From the IMG/VR virus record IMGVR_UViG_2541047893_000009, positions 1 through 38,183 of that record: a stretch of 38,183 bases of DNA, one strand, 5' to 3'. Each line of letters begins with the position of its first letter. The first letter of the stretch is position 1. The position numbers were made by a program, and so were the translations under genes. The notes beneath the pieces were generated by a model. The model was not told the DNA's origin and made no database searches. It was given only the letters and a program-made list of their open reading frames with translations. Source of the DNA: a virus. Lineage: Duplodnaviria > Heunggongvirae > Uroviricota > Caudoviricetes. Shown piece by piece: positions 1 through 7,746 of this stretch.

Positions 1-855
1 TCACACTCGGGAGCAGGCTGAGAGCACAGAAGGAAAGTACCTGGCTATTATATCGTTAATTCTGTCAATCAGTTCCAGCCTTTTGAAAGTGATGTGTGCA
101 GATCCCTTCTTAAAGTATTTAATGATGAACATCTCGTCTTCATTGCGCTCTTTACCCTGAACGGACTGGATGTGACCATCCAGACGAATAGTGATGTTTT
201 CCCGGTTGTCGGGGATCGGTTTGCCGCTGAACAGATGTAGCATTCTTTCCAGGTCGACGAGTCGGTCAGTCTGTTGCCCGGTGATAAGATGAAACCCCCA
301 TCGGTCCCACCTCACTAGGTTGTTGACGATAATTTTACTGCCAAATTTGCAGGGGCAATTGGTTTTGTAATTCCAGTTCAGTCCCCTGAAGACGTTGATC
401 ACCCCTCGCTCAAACACCTCATCCTTATTCTGGTGCAGTTGTTCAAATGTGCTCAGAATGTTCGCTTCACTGATTTCCGGAAAATTATCGTATTCCAGTG
501 ACCGGTACCATGTATCACGGGCCTGCGCATCCATTAATGACAGCATCCCGGAACGTTGCATCAGGTCACGCCAGATTTCGCGATCGAGATTGCGGGTGAT
601 GGCTTTCATTGCTGTTTCAGGTTTATCCATCAGCCAGCAGCCACAGCGAAAATCCTGTTTCATGGCCCAGTCCCGGGCGGTTTTACCTCCAATGCTTTCC
701 GTCAGAACTGAGATGTCAGCCAGTTGCCGGATAAGTGTGTCGATTTGCAGCAGTGTACTTTTTCGTACAGCCAGAATGCGGCAGATACTGGTTGAGCAGA
801 TAACGTCCGTATGCCCGTTGACCACTTCCGGACGGGAGGCTGTGATATCAGACAT
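1..855 (-). CDS. Hypothetical protein, DUF4942-like (methyltransferase-like), conserved downstream of the CbtA toxin block
   Basis: Complete 284-aa ORF with its stop at window positions 1-3 on the minus strand; position after the yeeV/yeeW-type genes matches CP4-type islands; family assigned from memory. Confidence 0.5.
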   Translation of the reverse strand: MSDITASRPEVVNGHTDVICSTSICRILAVRKSTLLQIDTLIRQLADISVLTESIGGKTARDWAMKQDFRCGCWLMDKPETAMKAITRNLDREIWRDLMQRSGMLSLMDAQARDTWYRSLEYDNFPEISEANILSTFEQLHQNKDEVFERGVINVFRGLNWNYKTNCPCKFGSKIIVNNLVRWDRWGFHLITGQQTDRLVDLERMLHLFSGKPIPDNRENITIRLDGHIQSVQGKERNEDEMFIIKYFKKGSAHITFKRLELIDRINDIIARYFPSVLSACSRV

Positions 856-873
856 AATCGATATTCCTTTTTG

Positions 874-910
874 CAGATAAATGAAAACGCCAGCCCTGTT
901 CAGGCTGGCG
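874..910 (-). terminator. Putative intrinsic terminator (8-bp stem CGCCAGCC/GGCTGGCG, 7-nt loop, T-rich tail on minus strand)
   Basis: Perfect inverted repeat at 888-910, followed on the minus strand by TTTTCATTTAT; lies between the stop of the 940-1137 gene and the start of the 1-855 gene. Confidence 0.4.
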
Positions 911-939
911 TCAGTGGAATGAAGTCTGGTGAGTAATAT

Positions 940-1137
940 TTACCGGTTCTGGTGCAGAAGCTGCAGATGACGAAGAGTACGGACATCCTCCCGGGCCCCT
1001 TCGATACAGGGCAACAGTGCTGCCGAATCCGTTTTATCCTCATCGTTGTCAAAGATAATTCCCGATTCGCAGTCGATATTGTCCTGCAGCCACACAATCA
1101 GAATATCCAGTGCTGTTTCCGTGGTTAATGATTTCAT
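940..1137 (-). CDS. Small hypothetical protein (65 aa), acidic
   Basis: ORF directly downstream of the YeeW-like gene with 11-nt spacing; no recognisable domain; an overlapping 900-1097 ORF in another frame looks spurious. Confidence 0.35.
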   Translation of the reverse strand: MKSLTTETALDILIVWLQDNIDCESGIIFDNDEDKTDSAALLPCIEGAREDVRTLRHLQLLHQNR

Positions 1138-1148
1138 GTTGTTCCTGG

Positions 1149-1637
1149 TTACCAGTCGAAAGTGGGCAGGTCAGGCAGACATTCAGCGCTGGCATCCAGA
1201 TGAATGAGACTGACGCCATAACGCCGGATAAGTGTGACAACCAGACGGCGGAACGTTTTTGACAGTCCCAGGCGTTTAAGCCGCAGAACCGGGTATGACC
1301 ACGCATCGGTACGTAACAGATATCCGCTACCTGTAAAATGAATCCATTCTGATTCGCCGAAGTCATTCGTCTGATGTGACAGCGAGTACAGCCAGGCGTT
1401 GTCCTTTTCCGTGATATGTGCGGTACTGCAGCGTATGCCGGCAAGGGCCGTAAACGGTGGTGGTGTGCAGGTTGACTGTTGGTCGGATTCCTCCACCACG
1501 CGGAGTGAATAACCGTTTTCAGCGACATGGTTAATCAGTTCAGCGAGATTCACACCATCGACGTCAACGACAATGCGCCCCATGTTCAGTGCCTGCACGT
1601 TAATGCTGTCGGCTTCCAGCGTCAGGGCCAGTTTCAT
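1149..1637 (-). CDS. YeeW-like hypothetical protein, translationally coupled to the cbtA toxin gene
   Basis: 162-aa ORF whose start overlaps the cbtA stop by 4 nt (ATGA arrangement); corresponds positionally to yeeW downstream of yeeV in CP4-44. Confidence 0.5.
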   Translation of the reverse strand: MKLALTLEADSINVQALNMGRIVVDVDGVNLAELINHVAENGYSLRVVEESDQQSTCTPPPFTALAGIRCSTAHITEKDNAWLYSLSHQTNDFGESEWIHFTGSGYLLRTDAWSYPVLRLKRLGLSKTFRRLVVTLIRRYGVSLIHLDASAECLPDLPTFDW

Positions 1638-2011
1638 TGTTTCGCCTCCGGATGCTTACCCAGGGTAATGTCATTTACCGTTCTGTAGTTGTCGCGGGTC
1701 ATCAGGCCGGTTGCCCGGCGTGCCCGGAGGATATCAATACTGTTTATTAACTGAGAACGGGTACAGGCACTGAATTCCGGCTGGTCGGTACGCACCAGTG
1801 CGTATTTTTCAACGAGAAAGTTCACCGCGTCACACAGTGAAATGCCTGCCTCAATATGCTGCTCAATCACACGTTCATCGGCGAACGGTGTGTCATTCAG
1901 GGTAAGGCCGTAATGCTGGCCCAGTAGTCGGGAGAGCAGAGTCTGCCAGATGGTGACGGGAGACGGGCAGCTCGATGCCTCCCGTACGTGTGTATCGGGT
2001 AATGTTTTCAT
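1634..2011 (-). CDS. cbtA: CbtA/YeeV/YkfI/YpjF-family toxin (type IV toxin-antitoxin; cytoskeleton-targeting)
   Basis: Translation from the internal ATG at 2011 (MKTLPDTHV...IWQTLLSRLLGQHYGLTLNDTPFADERVIEQHIEAGISLCDAVNFLVEKYALVRTDQ...) is near-identical over most of its length to the YeeV family as I recall it; the track ORF extends upstream to 2146, but the conserved protein begins at this ATG. Confidence 0.85.
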   Translation of the reverse strand: MKTLPDTHVREASSCPSPVTIWQTLLSRLLGQHYGLTLNDTPFADERVIEQHIEAGISLCDAVNFLVEKYALVRTDQPEFSACTRSQLINSIDILRARRATGLMTRDNYRTVNDITLGKHPEAKQ

Positions 2012-2100
2012 ACTGAAGGTTTTCCTGATATGCAGAGATGAAAAATGGAAAAGTGGCGTGGTGAAAGCACCAGGCCGGAGCAGAAGGTTATTCCGGGGGG

Positions 2101-2529
2101 TTACTTTTTCGTTTCGGGTGTCGGATAAACAGCCAGATAAACGCAACCACAGCTGCCGAGGGTATCGGCTTCGCAGGTCAGCCCTTTTGCATACAGCGTG
2201 ACGGTATGCTGATGGCGGGGATTCAGTTCACCGCTGGTGAGCATGAGTTCCAGTTGTTTCATCAGCAGCGGAAAGGCCTGGTCCAGATGGTATGCATCCG
2301 CGTCGCTGAACCGGCCTCTGATACCGGCACGGTCGGCAAGGTAATGCAACCGGTTACCCTCCTGCACCAGACGTGCCCCGAAACAGGGCGTCACGGTGCA
2401 GGGCAGCCCCCACCAGGGGCGGTCGTGATTGTCGTCGGGATGCGTTGTCCCGGGCAGTGTGTCTGACACGATAAAGTCCTCACAGAAATCAGTTAAGAAT
2501 GGTTCGATGGTGGCGATAATTCGGCTCAT
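2101..2529 (-). CDS. cbeA: CbeA/YeeU/YfjZ/YafW-family antitoxin
   Basis: Translation contains ...SDTLPGTTHPDDNHDRPWWGLPCTVTPCFGARLVQEGNRLHYLADRAGIRG..., matching the YeeU family. The true start may be the in-frame GTG at about 2469 (protein beginning VSDTLPG), which would give about 122 aa. Confidence 0.85.
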   Translation of the reverse strand: MSRIIATIEPFLTDFCEDFIVSDTLPGTTHPDDNHDRPWWGLPCTVTPCFGARLVQEGNRLHYLADRAGIRGRFSDADAYHLDQAFPLLMKQLELMLTSGELNPRHQHTVTLYAKGLTCEADTLGSCGCVYLAVYPTPETKK

Positions 2530-2547
2530 CAGAATGCCCTTCCTGAC

Positions 2548-2769
2548 TCAGTTCAGGGTGACGCTCATCAGCCGGACATACGGGCCAAAACTGTCTTTAC
2601 GGCGTTCTGCAAACACAGCCAGCACACCGGGAATATCCTGCACTTCACGACCGGTATACGCTTCAGTGCTGCCGTGCCAGCGGTATTTGCCGGTACAGAA
2701 CGGAAAAAGACGGGATGCCGGATGTTGTTGGTGAATACGCATGGCTTCACCACGGGTGATGATTTTCAT
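2548..2769 (-). CDS. yeeT: YeeT/YkfH-family protein (DUF987)
   Basis: 73-aa translation MKIITRGEAMRIHQQHP...FPFCTGKYRWHGS...VRLMSVTLN matches the YeeT family as recalled; position between the radC-like and antitoxin genes is canonical. Confidence 0.8.
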   Translation of the reverse strand: MKIITRGEAMRIHQQHPASRLFPFCTGKYRWHGSTEAYTGREVQDIPGVLAVFAERRKDSFGPYVRLMSVTLN

Positions 2770-2837
2770 AGTGTGATACCTCTGAAGACAGAAGATAAAA
2801 GCGAAAACAGGTATGATGTGGTTGTAACGGTGACGGG

Positions 2838-3314
2838 TTAAAGCAGACCGTGTTCCGCAAAGGAGAAAACCTGGCTGCCACCGACTATCAGATGGTCCGG
2901 CACCCGGATATCCACCAGGCCCAGTGCCTGTACCAGACGTTCCGTGATAAGGCGGTCTGCCTTGCTGGGTGTGACTTCACCGGACGGGTGATTGTGCGCC
3001 AGTACCACGGCAGCGGCATTGTGGTACAGGGCGCGTTTAATCACTTCCCGGGGATGGACTTCCGTGCGGTTGATGGTGCCGGTGAAGAGGGTTTCACCGG
3101 CAATCAGCTTATTCTGGTTGTTCAGATACAGCACCCGGAATTCTTCACGCTCCAGTCCCGCCATGTTCAGAATCAGCCATTCCCGTGCCGCACGGGTGGA
3201 GGTGAAGGCCACGCCGGGTTCATGAAGATGGCGGTCCAGGGTTTTCAGGGCCCGCTGAATGAGGCTGCGCTCGCCGGGCGTCATCTCTCCTGGCAGAAAG
3301 GAAAGCTGTTGCAT
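2838..3314 (-). CDS. RadC-like JAB/MPN-domain protein (YeeS/YkfG/YfjY family)
   Basis: 158-aa translation with the JAB metalloprotease signature region HNHPSGEVTPSKADRLITERL; canonical position in CP4-type islands. Confidence 0.85.
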   Translation of the reverse strand: MQQLSFLPGEMTPGERSLIQRALKTLDRHLHEPGVAFTSTRAAREWLILNMAGLEREEFRVLYLNNQNKLIAGETLFTGTINRTEVHPREVIKRALYHNAAAVVLAHNHPSGEVTPSKADRLITERLVQALGLVDIRVPDHLIVGGSQVFSFAEHGLL

Positions 3315-3328
3315 TGTTCCAGCCCCTT

Positions 3329-3814
3329 TCAGTCAATGATGCGCATAATGGCGTTGCATTCCGGATGCTGCAGGGCGTAGTCCCGCAGACGGTAATAATG
3401 AACCGTCATGGCATAACACTCCGTGCGACAGGCATGATGACTGTACGTCATCAGACAGGCAGCAATGCCGGCGGCTTCCGGGCTCATTTCAGCACGGTTA
3501 CCGTTCATGGCATTGAACAGTACCCATGTCTCGTCATCATCGTCATCCGGTTCGGGTGCCATAAATGCCCCGCCGTTGTTCAGGGTGTACAGATTCCAGA
3601 TACCACCGCAGTAGTCTTCGCAAAGATGGTCCATCCAGCCGAAGACACGGGGTTCCAGGGTCACCCACTGTGGAATGAGGCCAAAATGCTGCGGCCAGAA
3701 GCTGATGCGCTGTTCATGAGGAACGAGAGTGGCAACCAGTTGAGGCTGGTCATTCTCTGAAGCTGTGACTACGGAAGCAGAAAGTGTACAGGTGTTCTGA
3801 GAAACAGTTTTCAT
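3329..3814 (-). CDS. Antirestriction protein, ArdB/KlcA family (YfjX/YkfF-like)
   Basis: 161-aa translation with an acidic PEPDDDDDETW stretch and conserved cysteine-rich C-terminus, recalled as typical of YfjX/KlcA; canonical position. Confidence 0.8.
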   Translation of the reverse strand: MKTVSQNTCTLSASVVTASENDQPQLVATLVPHEQRISFWPQHFGLIPQWVTLEPRVFGWMDHLCEDYCGGIWNLYTLNNGGAFMAPEPDDDDDETWVLFNAMNGNRAEMSPEAAGIAACLMTYSHHACRTECYAMTVHYYRLRDYALQHPECNAIMRIID

Positions 3815-3904
3815 GAGTGAAATCCTTATAAAACAAATAAATGCAGGGTTTTCGGGGAGCAGGGGGTAGGGGAGCCTGAATCACGTCTTCAGGGATGTGC
3901 TGCA

Positions 3905-4723
3905 TCAGCGCATGTTCTCCAGCAGCGTTTCTGTCATTACCCACAATGCGCGATTGAGCTTAATGTCCGTGTCGATGCTGTGAATGGCACGGGTGTGGAT
4001 ACGTTTTCCTTTAGCGCTGCGACCGGAAATCCCGCCTTTCAGCATATTCTCCTGGATGGTCTGATATGCGCTCCACAGGTCCTTACCGTAATCCTCCCGG
4101 CGTCGCGGCGTCAGAATGTCGGCGGTGGTGACGGGCTGATGTTCGTCACCATAACGGTAAGTCAGTGCCGCCTGTGCCAGCGCCTGGCGTGCCGGTGGCG
4201 GCAGGACCAGCGACTGCATGGCGTCACGCTTTTCTTCAATCCGGTCAAAAACCCCCACCACCTCGTAAGCCCCTTCGATAACTTTCTCCACTACATTTCC
4301 CCGGTGTGGAACACGCACTTCCCCCAGAGACTGACCACAGACGCATCCGTTCTGGCAGACGAACCTGAAGTAACCCGGCAGCATCTGGTAGCTGGAGGTA
4401 CCGTCATGGGAGTTCAGCAGGATGATTTCAGGGACATGTTGTCCGTTTATCTCCCCGTCACGGCGCAGACGCAGCATGTGTTTGGTGTATCCCCGGCGGC
4501 CCGGGTCGCGCACACGGGTCTGGCAGGCGAAGAATGGCTGAAAACCTTCCCGCTGCAGGCTTTCCAGCACTGTGATGGTGGGGATCCAGGTATAGTTCTC
4601 GCTTCTGGATGTGTGCTTATCTTCCCCGAATACGCTGGGGACGACCTGCATCAGTTCTTCACGAGTTAAGGGACGATCACGGCGTATCTGATTTACATGA
4701 CCAAAACGACTGGCTAATTGCAT
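3905..4723 (-). CDS. DUF932-domain protein (YfjQ/YafZ family)
   Basis: 272-aa ORF; sequence and position between the antirestriction gene and the regulator match YfjQ/YafZ of CP4 islands (memory-based). Confidence 0.7.
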   Translation of the reverse strand: MQLASRFGHVNQIRRDRPLTREELMQVVPSVFGEDKHTSRSENYTWIPTITVLESLQREGFQPFFACQTRVRDPGRRGYTKHMLRLRRDGEINGQHVPEIILLNSHDGTSSYQMLPGYFRFVCQNGCVCGQSLGEVRVPHRGNVVEKVIEGAYEVVGVFDRIEEKRDAMQSLVLPPPARQALAQAALTYRYGDEHQPVTTADILTPRRREDYGKDLWSAYQTIQENMLKGGISGRSAKGKRIHTRAIHSIDTDIKLNRALWVMTETLLENMR

Positions 4724-4750
4724 ACTTTGCTCCTTATGAATGAGTTAGCG

Positions 4751-4791
4751 GTATAAATGAAAAGGCCGCGTCTCCCGGAGAAGACGCGGCC
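4751..4791 (-). terminator. Putative intrinsic terminator / stable hairpin (11-bp perfect stem AGGCCGCGTCT, 8-nt loop) between the DUF905 and DUF932 genes
   Basis: Perfect inverted repeat at 4762-4791; on the minus strand it is followed by TTTCATTTATACC; the TATAAAT at 4751-4757 could also be a -10 element for the downstream gene. Confidence 0.45.
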
Positions 4792-4812
4792 TGATGGATG
4801 AAATGAAGACGT

Positions 4813-5046
4813 TTATTGCCTGAGAATTCCCTCACTGGCGAGATATGGATTTAGCTGTTTTCCGGCATCAGGTTCAAAATTCCAGCACCGCCAGCGTAGC
4901 TGCCCTTCAGCATTGTGGATAACCAGCCGGAAATGCGTTCCCTGATCATCTTCAATAAGCACATTGCGGTAAGCTGTTGTGACAGCCATCGCCTGTTCGC
5001 GTGAGAAAGGGCCTTCGGGCAATAAAACAGGGTGACAGTCCGACAT
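4813..5046 (-). CDS. DUF905-family small protein
   Basis: 77-aa ORF in the conserved position; family assignment from memory. Confidence 0.55.
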
Positions 5047-5051
5047 ACCGG

Positions 5052-5729
5052 CTATTTTCCGATAAATTCAACGCTGGCACCGGTGGCATTACCGTCAGCA
5101 CCAACCGTGACGGTCACTTTGTCGTACGCACGGTCTTCAGGATTGAACACTTCAAACTCAACCTTATTGCCTTTTACTTCGTAAGAGCCAAAATCAGCGG
5201 TTTCTGTTGTTTCCTCGTCATATTCCCGGGCGTATGCCTGCCGGGCAGCCTGCAGGACGGAATCTTTATTAATGGCGGGTGTCTGTTTCGGGGAAAAACC
5301 AGCAAGTGATGTGACAAATTTCGGACAGACCTTCAGCATATCACCGCGGGTGAATTCCATTCGTACACCAAATGCCTGTAAAACGGACACATCACGCTCT
5401 GCTATGGAGTGAACGGCTTTTTTGACCATTTCCGGCGCCTGTCCGACTTCCACCTCAACAGCCCTGAATCCCGTCTGCTGATTACACATTTGTGATGTGG
5501 GGATCAGGTTACCGTTAATACTGATACGGCTGCCCAGGAGCGTCTGTACACCATTCGGGCATCCCTGCATCAGGCCGGTAATACCAATCGTGCCATTTTT
5601 CAGCATTACCAGCGCCTGACCATCTTCCGTCATGGTCTGACACCAGCCGTTTTTGACAGCCCAGTTGCCGGCGGAGGCGGAGAATGATGCCACAGTGAAC
5701 AGCAGGGGAAAAAGAGCTCTGGTATTCAT
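5052..5729 (-). CDS. Secreted protein or lipoprotein of the YfjS/YafY type
   Basis: Start set at the internal ATG at 5729, giving the N-terminus [25 protein letters not shown], a signal-peptide-like sequence; the track ORF extends to 5834 without a hydrophobic N-terminus. Confidence 0.6.
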
Positions 5730-5876
5730 GACTGACCTCTGAAATGAACGTACGGTGTTATTGATAATGATGGAAGGTATGCAGTGACTGTTCAGGGAAT
5801 GACGTAGCCGTATATTTAGTTTTCTGTTCAACATATTGTCTCCATACCTGTTGGGACGGCTTTGGCAGGCCGGCGA

Positions 5877-6557
5877 TCACAGGTTAAAGGTGTTGATAAG
5901 TTTATGGATGAAAGAGAAATGTGGCAGGGCGGAGATAAAACGCTCTTCAGCGACCAGACTGTGGATGTGGCCTCTCCGTTCAAACCGTTCTGATGTCAGG
6001 CTGACTGATTTGATATCTGCCAGAGGAAAGACCTGCAGTTTTCCCTTCTGTAACGCGATCAGATACCAGCTACCGCTGTAATAAATGAGCCGGCAGGGCT
6101 CCAGTGACGGATACCATCGCTCAGCCATCAGAGAGATGTGGATACACTGTCTTATTGCCAGGATGAGTTGCGAGAAACACTCGGGGAACGTTGCAGTGAT
6201 ATCCGGCGCCGGTAGCCAGATAAGGCAGGGAGAGGGCTCCTGGTTGTCGGTAAGACAGGTTATCAGTCGTCCGTTCCGGAGCGGAAGTATCCGTGCGATC
6301 CCGGTATTCTGTATAAAAGAAAGCATTTCAGGGATCGCACCCGGGCTGCTCTGTCGTCTGAGGCTGTACCTGCCATTTCTGTACTCTAAATCCAGGTGAA
6401 CCAGACGCTGATGAAAATCGCGCTGTAAAGTACGTTCTGTAACGCCAAATTCATCTGACAGTGTTTTTAGTGACAGAGATTCTCCGGTCATCAGTCGGCT
6501 GATAATGAGTGATAAGCGAACCGCCAGGCGATCATGCCGGGAACGATTATCAGACAT
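5877..6557 (-). CDS. YfjR-like transcriptional regulator (N-terminal HTH, WYL-type C-terminal domain)
   Basis: 226-aa ORF; N-terminus RLAVRLSLIISRLMTGESLSLKTLSDEFGVTERTLQRD is HTH-like; position beside the GTPase as in CP4-57 yfjR. Confidence 0.7.
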   Translation of the reverse strand: MSDNRSRHDRLAVRLSLIISRLMTGESLSLKTLSDEFGVTERTLQRDFHQRLVHLDLEYRNGRYSLRRQSSPGAIPEMLSFIQNTGIARILPLRNGRLITCLTDNQEPSPCLIWLPAPDITATFPECFSQLILAIRQCIHISLMAERWYPSLEPCRLIYYSGSWYLIALQKGKLQVFPLADIKSVSLTSERFERRGHIHSLVAEERFISALPHFSFIHKLINTFNL

Positions 6558-6759
6558 AGATGTGCACTCCGTAAGAAAACATCTTTTATTTCATGATGTT
6601 ATTATGCATCATGATGTTGAAAGGATGTGTCGCATCCGGATAATCAGGAATAAAATGCAGCAGAAAAAATATTCTTTTAATTATCTGATTTTTAAGCATG
6701 ATTTCATAAAAAGAAGAATGCTCGTTAATCCAGCGACACATCCTGTCGGCGTGAGTGTG

Positions 6760-7644
6760 TCAGAACAGACGCTCCCACAGTGTGATCAGCAGGTGGATAA
6801 TGCGGTCCCGGGTTTTGCGCAGAAGCTGTAACATCCAGGCCGGAAAACTGAAACGGGCAACGGCGTCGTCAAAACTTTTCCCGATGGTTTCACCAAAAGT
6901 CTGTTGTGCGTGTTTCCGGGCCTGTTCAGAGCGGTTTTCTCCCCGGATATGTGAATACACCGCGCTGGTTGCCTGTGGTGGCAGTGCGTGGATCATCAGC
7001 GACACAAACGCCGGAAGGTTCCAGCCGACAGGTGCAGCAACGGAGAGTACTGGAAATGATGAAGGGAACAGGGTTGCCACCCGGGCTGTCACCGTCGCCA
7101 GTGAGAGCGCCTGCTGACGGGACGGGCATTTTTCTGTGGCATTCCATTCTTCAGCAGGAAACACGCGATCGGCATGGCTGAGAACAAACAGAAAACGCGA
7201 GGGATCTGCGCCTTCATTCAGTAAAAACTGATGCATGGTAATGTCGGCGGCATACGCGCGTTCATCTGCCCGCAGGATCCAGATAATCAGATCCAGTTCC
7301 GGTAGCAGCTGACGATAAAGTGTCCGGTATTCCTGATCATGCTGCGGTGTTTCACCAATGCCGGGCAGATCGACCAGCGTCATTCTGCGTTCACCGAGTT
7401 GCAGGGTAAGACGATGAGCCTGGCGGGTGCAGCCGTTCAGGGGATGCGTGGCGCAGATACGGGACTGAAAAATGGCATTACACAGGCTGCTTTTGCCGGT
7501 GCCGGATTTACCCATAATGCCAATCACGGGCTCGTAATGAATAACACTGTGGAGATGTTCAAGGATTTTCTGGCGAATTTCTTCAGGAAGAAACGTCAGA
7601 TATGATTTCACTTGTGCGGAGAGGGAAGAATGGCTGAATGACAT
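6760..7644 (-). CDS. YfjP/YkfA-family GTPase (50S ribosome-binding / dynamin-like GTPase family)
   Basis: 294-aa ORF with P-loop GIMGKSGTGKSS and a DLPG G3-like motif; characteristic first gene of this island module. Confidence 0.8.
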   Translation of the reverse strand: MSFSHSSLSAQVKSYLTFLPEEIRQKILEHLHSVIHYEPVIGIMGKSGTGKSSLCNAIFQSRICATHPLNGCTRQAHRLTLQLGERRMTLVDLPGIGETPQHDQEYRTLYRQLLPELDLIIWILRADERAYAADITMHQFLLNEGADPSRFLFVLSHADRVFPAEEWNATEKCPSRQQALSLATVTARVATLFPSSFPVLSVAAPVGWNLPAFVSLMIHALPPQATSAVYSHIRGENRSEQARKHAQQTFGETIGKSFDDAVARFSFPAWMLQLLRKTRDRIIHLLITLWERLF

Positions 7645-7746
7645 ACCGGTATCCTGTTGATTTCACTGAACCGGATCACACTAATCCGGTTTATCATTCA
7701 GGTAATATGGGCGTGAAAAAATCTGGAGTGACAAAGTTCGGGAGGA

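Follow-up and report, generated by a model that had tools for sequence, protein, structure and literature searches.

The stretch of DNA analysed here (the window) comprises the 38,183 nucleotides (nt) of IMG/VR virus record IMGVR_UViG_2541047893_000009, assigned to the Caudoviricetes, and carries on its minus strand a cbeA-cbtA (yeeU-yeeV) antitoxin-toxin pair followed by a gene of the DUF5983 family. The explanation that best accounts for this region, and that we regard as very likely, is that it constitutes the distal gene string of a CP4-44-type Escherichia coli genomic island in which cbeA starts at a GTG codon (position 2469), the in-frame ATG upstream of it (2529) is the relic of a deleted gene, the loss of a single T has fused this relic to cbeA, and the DUF5983 gene is probably translationally coupled to cbtA. 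The pair and its usual partner gene are ordinary, already catalogued components of E. coli islands, and the module, the third gene and the GTG start are all present in RefSeq annotation and in published surveys. What the analysis adds is the history of the ambiguous start codon and a quantified conservation of the overlap between the toxin stop and the third-gene start.

The antitoxin open reading frame (ORF) is open from 2529 to 2101 and would encode 142 amino acids (aa) from the ATG, or 122 aa from the in-frame GTG (2469-2467). It matches the CbeA_antitoxin profile (PF06154; E = 9.3e-54) beginning at residue 38 of the 142-aa ORF, and the toxin spans the complete CbtA_toxin profile (PF06755; E = 1.8e-61; residues 1-112 covering positions 1-112 of 112), in agreement with a sequence-only reading of this DNA that had described the pair as highly recognisable and had placed all the elements correctly. 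Matches of this strength, including those of the third gene given below, greatly exceed what chance would produce. The same reading had proposed that the antitoxin may start at the GTG at about 2469 rather than at the ATG, and had suggested alignment to characterised YeeU, YeeV and YeeW proteins. The crystallised YeeU structures 2INW (E = 8e-79) and 2H28 (E = 1e-77) align to the antitoxin from chain residue 2, the residue right after the GTG, with the caveat that the start of both constructs at the GTG residue reflects annotation and not a measured N-terminus. In addition, RefSeq annotation, as produced by the Prokaryotic Genome Annotation Pipeline (PGAP), places the cbeA start at the GTG in every genome inspected, and all close relatives retain GAGGA or AAGGA as the Shine-Dalgarno site preceding it.

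The frame upstream of the conserved antitoxin core was inspected in 52 loci encoding CbeA relatives, with one genome per species. In close relatives (89-96% identity, encompassing E. ruysiae, E. albertii, Shigella and other E. coli), a stop codon located 24 nt ahead of the GTG closes the cbeA frame (L002-L008, L038 and L053), and one of these loci (L007) presents an ATG at the codon where the window has GTG. In distant relatives (60-83%), the stop codon of the DUF987 gene lies about 0-46 nt before the cbeA start and is followed by a TAAGGAG-type site, with the DUF987 stop overlapping the predicted cbeA start in three loci. This proximity leaves no room for a 20-codon extension. The sequence-only reading had held that conservation of the upstream 20 residues in CbeA orthologues would argue against the GTG; the extension was instead found to be closed, absent or variable. 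RefSeq annotation, the closed frame of the relatives and the YeeU alignment hence agree in that the GTG at 2469 is the predicted conserved functional start of cbeA, from which the protein would be translated via the GAGGA site.

A look-up of the 142-aa sequence in databases turned up a 214-aa protein (P0244) with start MSRIITTTVYTL (MSRIITTT...). The gene coding for this protein, here termed gene X, fills a gap of ~700 bp between DUF987 and cbeA in several of the related loci (L002:2307-2948, L009:2305-2946, L024:2315-2956, L027:2309-2950 and L036:136-777), and is located between cbeA and cbtA in a Mixta locus (L033, 3357-4001). In E. ruysiae (L002), gene X is a pseudogene with two internal stops. 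Its leader (GAGTCAGTAAGGGCATTCTGATGAGCAGAATTATCACCACC) is the same as that of the window, and the sequence 3' of its stop codon (CATCGTTAAACCATTCTTAACCGATTTTCTGTGAGGATTTTATCGTG) is the same as the window sequence ahead of the GTG. The 78-nt 'intergenic' stretch of the window therefore corresponds to the start of gene X (~22 nt, 2529-2508) followed by its 3' flank, with an internal stretch of about 640 bp missing. The same ~640-bp deletion is found in the K-12-type allele. On this comparison, the ATG at 2529 and the AGGAAGGG ahead of it are the fossil initiation region of the lost ~214-aa gene X. The gene, still present in other Enterobacterales, would have been lost here through a ~640-bp internal deletion that left its initiation region in place. 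Together with a 1-nt frame fusion, this relic origin provides a new explanation for the ambiguous start that goes beyond the sequence-only reading. Gene X (P0244) has neither a Pfam family nor a PDB relative. The P0244 protein (MSRIITTTVYTLNEL; ~214 aa) carries the NCBI name 'antitoxin of toxin-antitoxin stability system' and is a variable member of the module.

The frame fusion is apparent in the alignment of the window with its close relatives (DNA alignment A1), in which GA-TTTCTGTGAGGA in the window is aligned with GATTTTCTGTGAGGA in each of the eight relatives. There, the conserved upstream ATG is the start of an independent ORF of 16 codons (MSRIIATTGPFLTDFL) that is out of frame with cbeA and terminates at a TGA or TAA within the ribosome-binding site of cbeA. 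By losing one T (TTTT to TTT), the window allele has fused the relic ORF in frame to cbeA, giving rise to the 142-aa ORF. The exact 96-nt allele is carried by 398 of the 5426 complete E. coli genomes, among them CFT073 and ST131 strains. A comparison of five fused-type alleles (alignment A3: the window, CFT073, STEC367, EH031 and ETEC1716) revealed two synonymous, four nonsynonymous and one nonsense change in the 20-codon extension; in ETEC1716, TTC TGA occurs in frame within the extension and the 122-aa cbeA is intact. The ratio of nonsynonymous to synonymous substitution rates (dN/dS) is low in cbeA (0.14-0.20), and the variability of the extension, including a nonsense change, thus points to an absence of coding constraint. 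Judging from these substitution patterns, the extension is not maintained by selection, and some N-terminally extended CbeA may be made from this allele.

The product of the third gene matches both domains of DUF5983, with E = 1.5e-30 for the N-terminal domain (DUF5983_N, PF25638; residues 4-59) and E = 4.3e-22 for the C-terminal domain (PF19419; residues 69-162), and is 88-96% identical to many 162-aa E. coli proteins named DUF5983 or Aec77, which substantiates its identification as YeeW. At the junction with the toxin gene (GCGAAACAATGAAACTG), the ATG of the third gene (1637-1635) and the TGA of the toxin (1636-1634) share the tetranucleotide ATGA, an overlap from which the sequence-only reading had deduced co-expression. 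This -4 spacing is preserved in 23 of the 23 related loci with an interpretable junction, spanning protein identities from 93% down to 56% and the genera Escherichia, Scandinavium, Kluyvera, Klebsiella, Yokenella, Yersinia, Serratia and Mixta, with a Shine-Dalgarno-like purine run 6-10 nt upstream of the DUF5983 start. In the window, the duplex of the GGAGG site with the anti-Shine-Dalgarno sequence is the strongest among ten starts compared. Co-transcription and translational coupling of cbtA and DUF5983 are well supported by these features: the ATGA overlap and the GGAGG motif inside the end of cbtA suggest that DUF5983 shares a transcript with cbtA and that its translation is probably coupled to that of the toxin gene.

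DUF5983 shows dN/dS values (0.12-0.33) indicative of purifying selection comparable to that acting on CbtA (0.14-0.35). Among the 46 cbtA loci with readable downstream sequence, DUF5983 or a remnant of it was detected in 26 and no trace in the remaining 20; several loci encode a truncated or frameshifted DUF5983 beside intact cbeA and cbtA, and in K-12-type loci the third gene is reduced to a 64-aa stump. DUF5983 is hence an accessory rather than an obligatory component. A profile search against 1.84 billion representatives returned 275 hits, mostly fragments and island chimeras. These results indicate a narrow family that does not extend beyond these islands. Structure prediction with AlphaFold2 (AF2; 90 sequences) yielded a model with two domains and a disordered linker (residues 52-59), with a predicted local distance difference test score (pLDDT) of 76.8 and a predicted template modelling score (pTM) of 0.56.

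Several observations weigh against this interpretation of the region, and the most direct concern the antitoxin start. It can be argued that the real antitoxin in this allele is the 142-aa protein starting at ATG 2529, a lineage-specific extended CbeA, possibly with altered properties, in which the GTG is merely an internal codon. This ATG is preceded by its Shine-Dalgarno-like sequence at good spacing, with pairing at least as good as that of the GTG (-7.0 vs -5.9 kcal/mol), and ATG is a stronger initiator than GTG. The ATG lies 18 nt past the DUF987 stop codon (TGA, 2550-2548), a distance at which terminating ribosomes could reinitiate. The 142-aa frame is open in the exact allele of 398 complete genomes, and the sequence has been deposited as a protein, on 151 contigs versus at least 1000 for the 122-aa form. 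With regard to the remainder of the module, a consensus scan of positions 800-5000 found no sigma-70-like promoter on the coding strand, the AF2 model of DUF5983 returned no fold match, searches of NCBIfam and PADLOC gave no match for the genes of unknown function, and PHROGs assigned DUF5983 and DUF987 only to families of unknown function. In none of the eight close relatives or the distant ones, however, is the extension present as an open frame, and among fused alleles it gathers nonsynonymous changes and, in one strain, an in-frame TGA that spares the 122-aa gene. Moreover, a conserved GAGGA site serves the GTG itself, the Pfam match begins no earlier than residue 38 of the 142-aa form, and neither crystallised YeeU construct contains the extension. 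The 142-aa antitoxin appears very unlikely on this evidence. A different role for the upstream sequence would be that of a functional leader peptide, encoded by the short ORF and controlling cbeA translation by termination-reinitiation or by unmasking of the site. The upstream ATG and its ribosome-binding site are conserved in four loci (L004, L006, L008 and L032), and the stop position of the 16-codon ORF is kept (TGA or TAA), overlapping the GAGGA/AAGGA site 11 nt before the GTG. This ORF is nonetheless accounted for in full by the junction of the 5' end of the deleted gene X with its 3' flank, and it is not present in loci with an intact gene X or in any distant locus. Little of the upstream ribosome-binding site is left in the K-12-type allele, and the fused allele abolishes the ORF altogether in about 7% of genomes. 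The 16-codon peptide varies freely (T/I/V, G/E, P/A, L/F, T/A), and the predicted fold of the leader RNA is no more stable than that of shuffled sequence (z = 0.78). Its gene X origin, the free variation of the peptide and the lack of any special leader structure led us to reject a functional leader peptide, which we consider extremely improbable, in favour of a deletion scar.

The tight linkage of DUF5983 to cbtA also admits the reading that it is an obligatory third component of the toxin-antitoxin system, acting for instance as a second antitoxin, a chaperone or a regulator, in which case the module would be more than a two-gene pair. The 4-nt overlap with cbtA is invariant across genera, the gene experiences purifying selection on a par with that of CbtA, and an automated survey of E. 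coli toxin-antitoxin systems lists DUF5983 as the invariably downstream partner of CbtA, scoring it as such in most E. coli sequence types (PMC10790755). Conversely, close to half of the readable cbtA loci (20 of 46) show no trace of DUF5983 and several more carry damaged copies beside an intact pair. The K-12-type third gene is a 64-aa stump, yet the K-12 pair has been shown experimentally to function as toxin and antitoxin (PMC5624674, PMC5371832). Furthermore, DUF5983 could be linked neither by fold nor by family to known chaperones, regulators or antitoxins, and an obligatory role seems quite unlikely. We ascribe a somewhat higher, but still low, probability to the disjunction of two bolder proposals: either DUF5983 and the adjacent DUF957 gene are working accessory components of the CbtA system, or the fused allele yields an extended CbeA isoform. 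If the former were true, DUF5983 and DUF957 could act as a toxin-bound modulator or as a trigger sensor timing the release of CbtA, and the full-length module would be a four-gene system of which K-12 shows only the stump. If the latter were true, the recycled start of a dead gene would give an extended CbeA isoform in roughly 7% of E. coli genomes. The reading that best accommodates the data remains that of a GTG-initiated cbeA preceded by a relic ATG, with DUF5983 as an accessory gene coupled to cbtA. The coordinates of the features on which it is based are compiled in Table 1.

Table 1. Features of the cbeA-cbtA-DUF5983 region and its immediate surroundings (window coordinates)
Feature	Position	Strand	Basis or remarks
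Terminator-like hairpin with T-rich tail	886..912	-	11-bp stem, 7 GC pairs; 3' of DUF957; prediction only
DUF957 gene, 65 aa	940..1137	-	PGAP name; starts 11 nt past DUF5983 stop
DUF5983 gene (full-length YeeW, alias Aec77), 162 aa, two domains	1149..1637	-	Pfam PF25638 and PF19419
ATGA overlap of cbtA stop and DUF5983 start	1634..1637	-	Read from sequence
cbtA (yeeV-family) toxin gene, 125 aa	1634..2011	-	Pfam PF06755; PGAP WP_000854747.1
GGAGG Shine-Dalgarno for DUF5983, in last cbtA codons	1645..1649	-	Anti-Shine-Dalgarno duplex -9.5 kcal/mol
cbeA-cbtA spacer, 89 nt	2012..2100	-	Read from sequence; similar lengths in close relatives
cbeA (yeeU) antitoxin gene, 122 aa, GTG start	2101..2469	-	Pfam PF06154; PDB 2INW, 2H28; PGAP WP_024186867.1
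20-codon in-frame extension MSRIIATIEPFLTDFCEDFI	2470..2529	-	Makes 142-aa ORF; not a conserved part of CbeA
GAGGA Shine-Dalgarno for cbeA GTG	2477..2481	-	Anti-Shine-Dalgarno duplex -5.9 kcal/mol, 6-nt spacing
TTT run (TTTT in all eight close relatives)	2486..2488	-	DNA alignments A1, A3
Gene X relic 5' end ATGAGCCGAATTATCGCCACCA, first 7 codons MSRIIAT	2508..2529	-	Matches starts of P0244 and L002:2307-2948
Shine-Dalgarno-like AGGAAGGG ahead of ATG 2529	2537..2544	-	Anti-Shine-Dalgarno duplex -7.0 kcal/mol, 7-nt spacing; relic of gene X
DUF987 (YeeT-like) gene, 73 aa	2548..2769	-	Pfam PF06174, E = 2e-39; PGAP on identical DNA

The island assignment is based on comparison with 5426 complete E. 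coli genomes. Positions 900-2900 of the window are 100% identical to many of these chromosomes, and related copies of this segment are present in 4983 of them, with a median of 3 per genome. On identical DNA in NZ_AP022171.1, PGAP annotates the order DUF932, antirestriction, JAB/RadC, DUF987, cbeA (369 nt), CbtA-family toxin, DUF5983, DUF957 and DUF4942, with an integrase fragment and cadC coming after DUF4942; the match of this island to the window is limited to positions 1-7720 (99.2%). The location of the antitoxin gene directly 5' of the toxin gene on one strand, within a CP4-type string of RadC, DUF987, antirestriction and DUF932 genes, is repeated in at least 40 related loci.

The eight genes from DUF932 to DUF957 are co-directional on the minus strand, with gaps of at most 91 nt, and the consensus scan identified terminator-like hairpins flanking the string (4792-4763 and 912-886), the latter of which is the probable 3' end of the transcription unit. 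Since no sigma-70-like site was detected, the transcription unit could be delineated from gene spacing and the two hairpins only, and there was no basis for proposing a promoter specific to the cbeA-cbtA pair. A single long transcription unit from DUF932 to DUF957 is plausible on this arrangement. In the K-12 paralogue, the upstream genes seem to lie within the same operon and neither toxin nor antitoxin autoregulates, as reported by Wen et al. (PMC5371832). The spacer between cbeA and cbtA contains no Rfam match and no promoter consensus, and no Rfam families or tRNAs were found anywhere in the window. An untranslated spacer of 89 nt is unusually long for a toxin-antitoxin pair.

The functional determinants of the toxin have been documented for K-12 CbtA, which binds FtsZ and MreB independently and blocks both division and elongation, with F65 as the FtsZ determinant and R15 as the MreB determinant (Heller et al. 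2017, PMC5624674). The window toxin presents F65 and has Cys at residue 15 (1967-1969). The R15C substitution abolishes MreB binding in K-12 CbtA, whereas YpjF and YkfI are naturally C15 and YpjF still binds MreB (PMC5624674), so that C15 does not predict a loss of function here. By analogy with the K-12 orthologues, CbtA would block division and elongation through FtsZ and MreB, and CbeA would counteract it as an antitoxin of type IV, with the cytoskeletal filaments and not the toxin as its target. The ribosome-binding site of the toxin is the weakest of the string (-4.3 kcal/mol). In the antitoxin, codon 108 (122-aa numbering; window 2146-2148) encodes Cys within the motif GSCGCVYLAVYP, and the corresponding residue is Tyr in 2INW, 2H28 and 2JN7.

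Among related loci, DUF957 was detected solely where DUF5983 is present, and the two genes would form an optional accessory sub-module. The DUF957 protein matched no model in the current Pfam-A, and its dN/dS values (0.13-0.19) denote purifying selection comparable to that on CbtA. A 2026 preprint argued that AntiFam entry ANF00264, found with DUF5983 beside cbtA and cbeA, is a real protein or domain; this entry may correspond to the N-terminal domain of DUF5983 or to DUF957. A search for published work on the ORF upstream of yeeU or on Aec77 found nothing relevant.

Apparent fusions of DUF5983 to DUF932, AIDA, YjcZ and antirestriction domains were also encountered in the profile search. Since only parts of these domains are present, the fusions resemble chimeras produced by deletion or assembly, and were not used to assign function. 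The chimeric predictions in databases comprise a CbtA-DUF5983 fusion, a DUF5983 protein with internal repeats and DUF5983 C-terminal domains joined to such partial domains (P0095, 279 aa; P0001, 214 aa; P0280; P0283-P0285), and most likely stem from frameshifting, deletion or misassembly within islands of this type. Cbe genes more than 90% identical to those of E. coli were observed in assemblies of Arthrobacter, Neorhizobium and Mesorhizobium and in a Lachnospiraceae metagenome-assembled genome (L007, L026, L053 and L006). The contigs of the first three are tiny and of very low coverage, and that of the Lachnospiraceae genome is short; these instances probably represent E. coli contamination or mis-binning. 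The protein encoded by the flanking DUF4942 gene shows a weak PHROGs match to a DNA-methyltransferase family. Elsewhere in the window, the region from ~11146 to 32000 and beyond matches, at 100% identity, a Mu-like transposable prophage found in about 96 E. coli genomes, with annotated genes for an integrase-core transposase, an ExeA/MuB-like protein, a DUF935 portal protein, DUF3102 and a major capsid protein.

The biological consequences of these observations are small, and their practical value lies in annotation. Identical DNA has been deposited as encoding a 122-aa and a 142-aa antitoxin, and the history of the frame favours the 122-aa model; the case cautions against start calls that take the longest ORF. 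In turn, the invariant overlap and the purifying selection make DUF5983 and DUF957 reasonable targets for studying the triggers of CbtA-family toxins.

The closest known counterpart of the window module is the cbeA (yeeU)-cbtA (yeeV)-yeeW locus of K-12 CP4-44, with which it has in common gene order, strand and the upstream DUF987 and RadC genes. Relative to the K-12-type copy (L005), CbeA is 93% and CbtA 90% identical, and the GTG start, the relic upstream ORF and the ATGA junction are found in both. The two differ in the third gene, which is a full-length 162-aa gene in the window and a truncated 64-aa ORF in the K-12-type copy, in the T missing from the window allele, which places the relic ATG in the cbeA frame, and in toxin residue 15, which is Cys in the window and Arg in K-12 CbtA. 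The type IV pairs YfjZ-YpjF (CP4-57) and YafW-YkfI (CP4-6) of K-12 belong to the same two Pfam families and occupy the same island context, and their toxins share Cys15 and Phe65 with the window toxin (PMC5624674). Their sequences are more distant from the window than those of K-12 CbeA-CbtA, and the YfjZ structures 2JN7 and 2EA9 match the window antitoxin (E about 1e-41) over its core only, from residue 39 of the long ORF. Tripartite toxin-antitoxin systems, such as toxin-antitoxin-chaperone systems with a SecB-like chaperone, also contain a tightly linked third gene. Searches of DUF5983 with Pfam, NCBIfam, PADLOC, PHROGs and fold comparison identified no recognisable chaperone or DNA-binding fold or family. 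The window module resembles these systems in having a third, linked and apparently co-translated gene in the putative operon, but differs from them in that this gene follows the toxin gene and many loci dispense with it.

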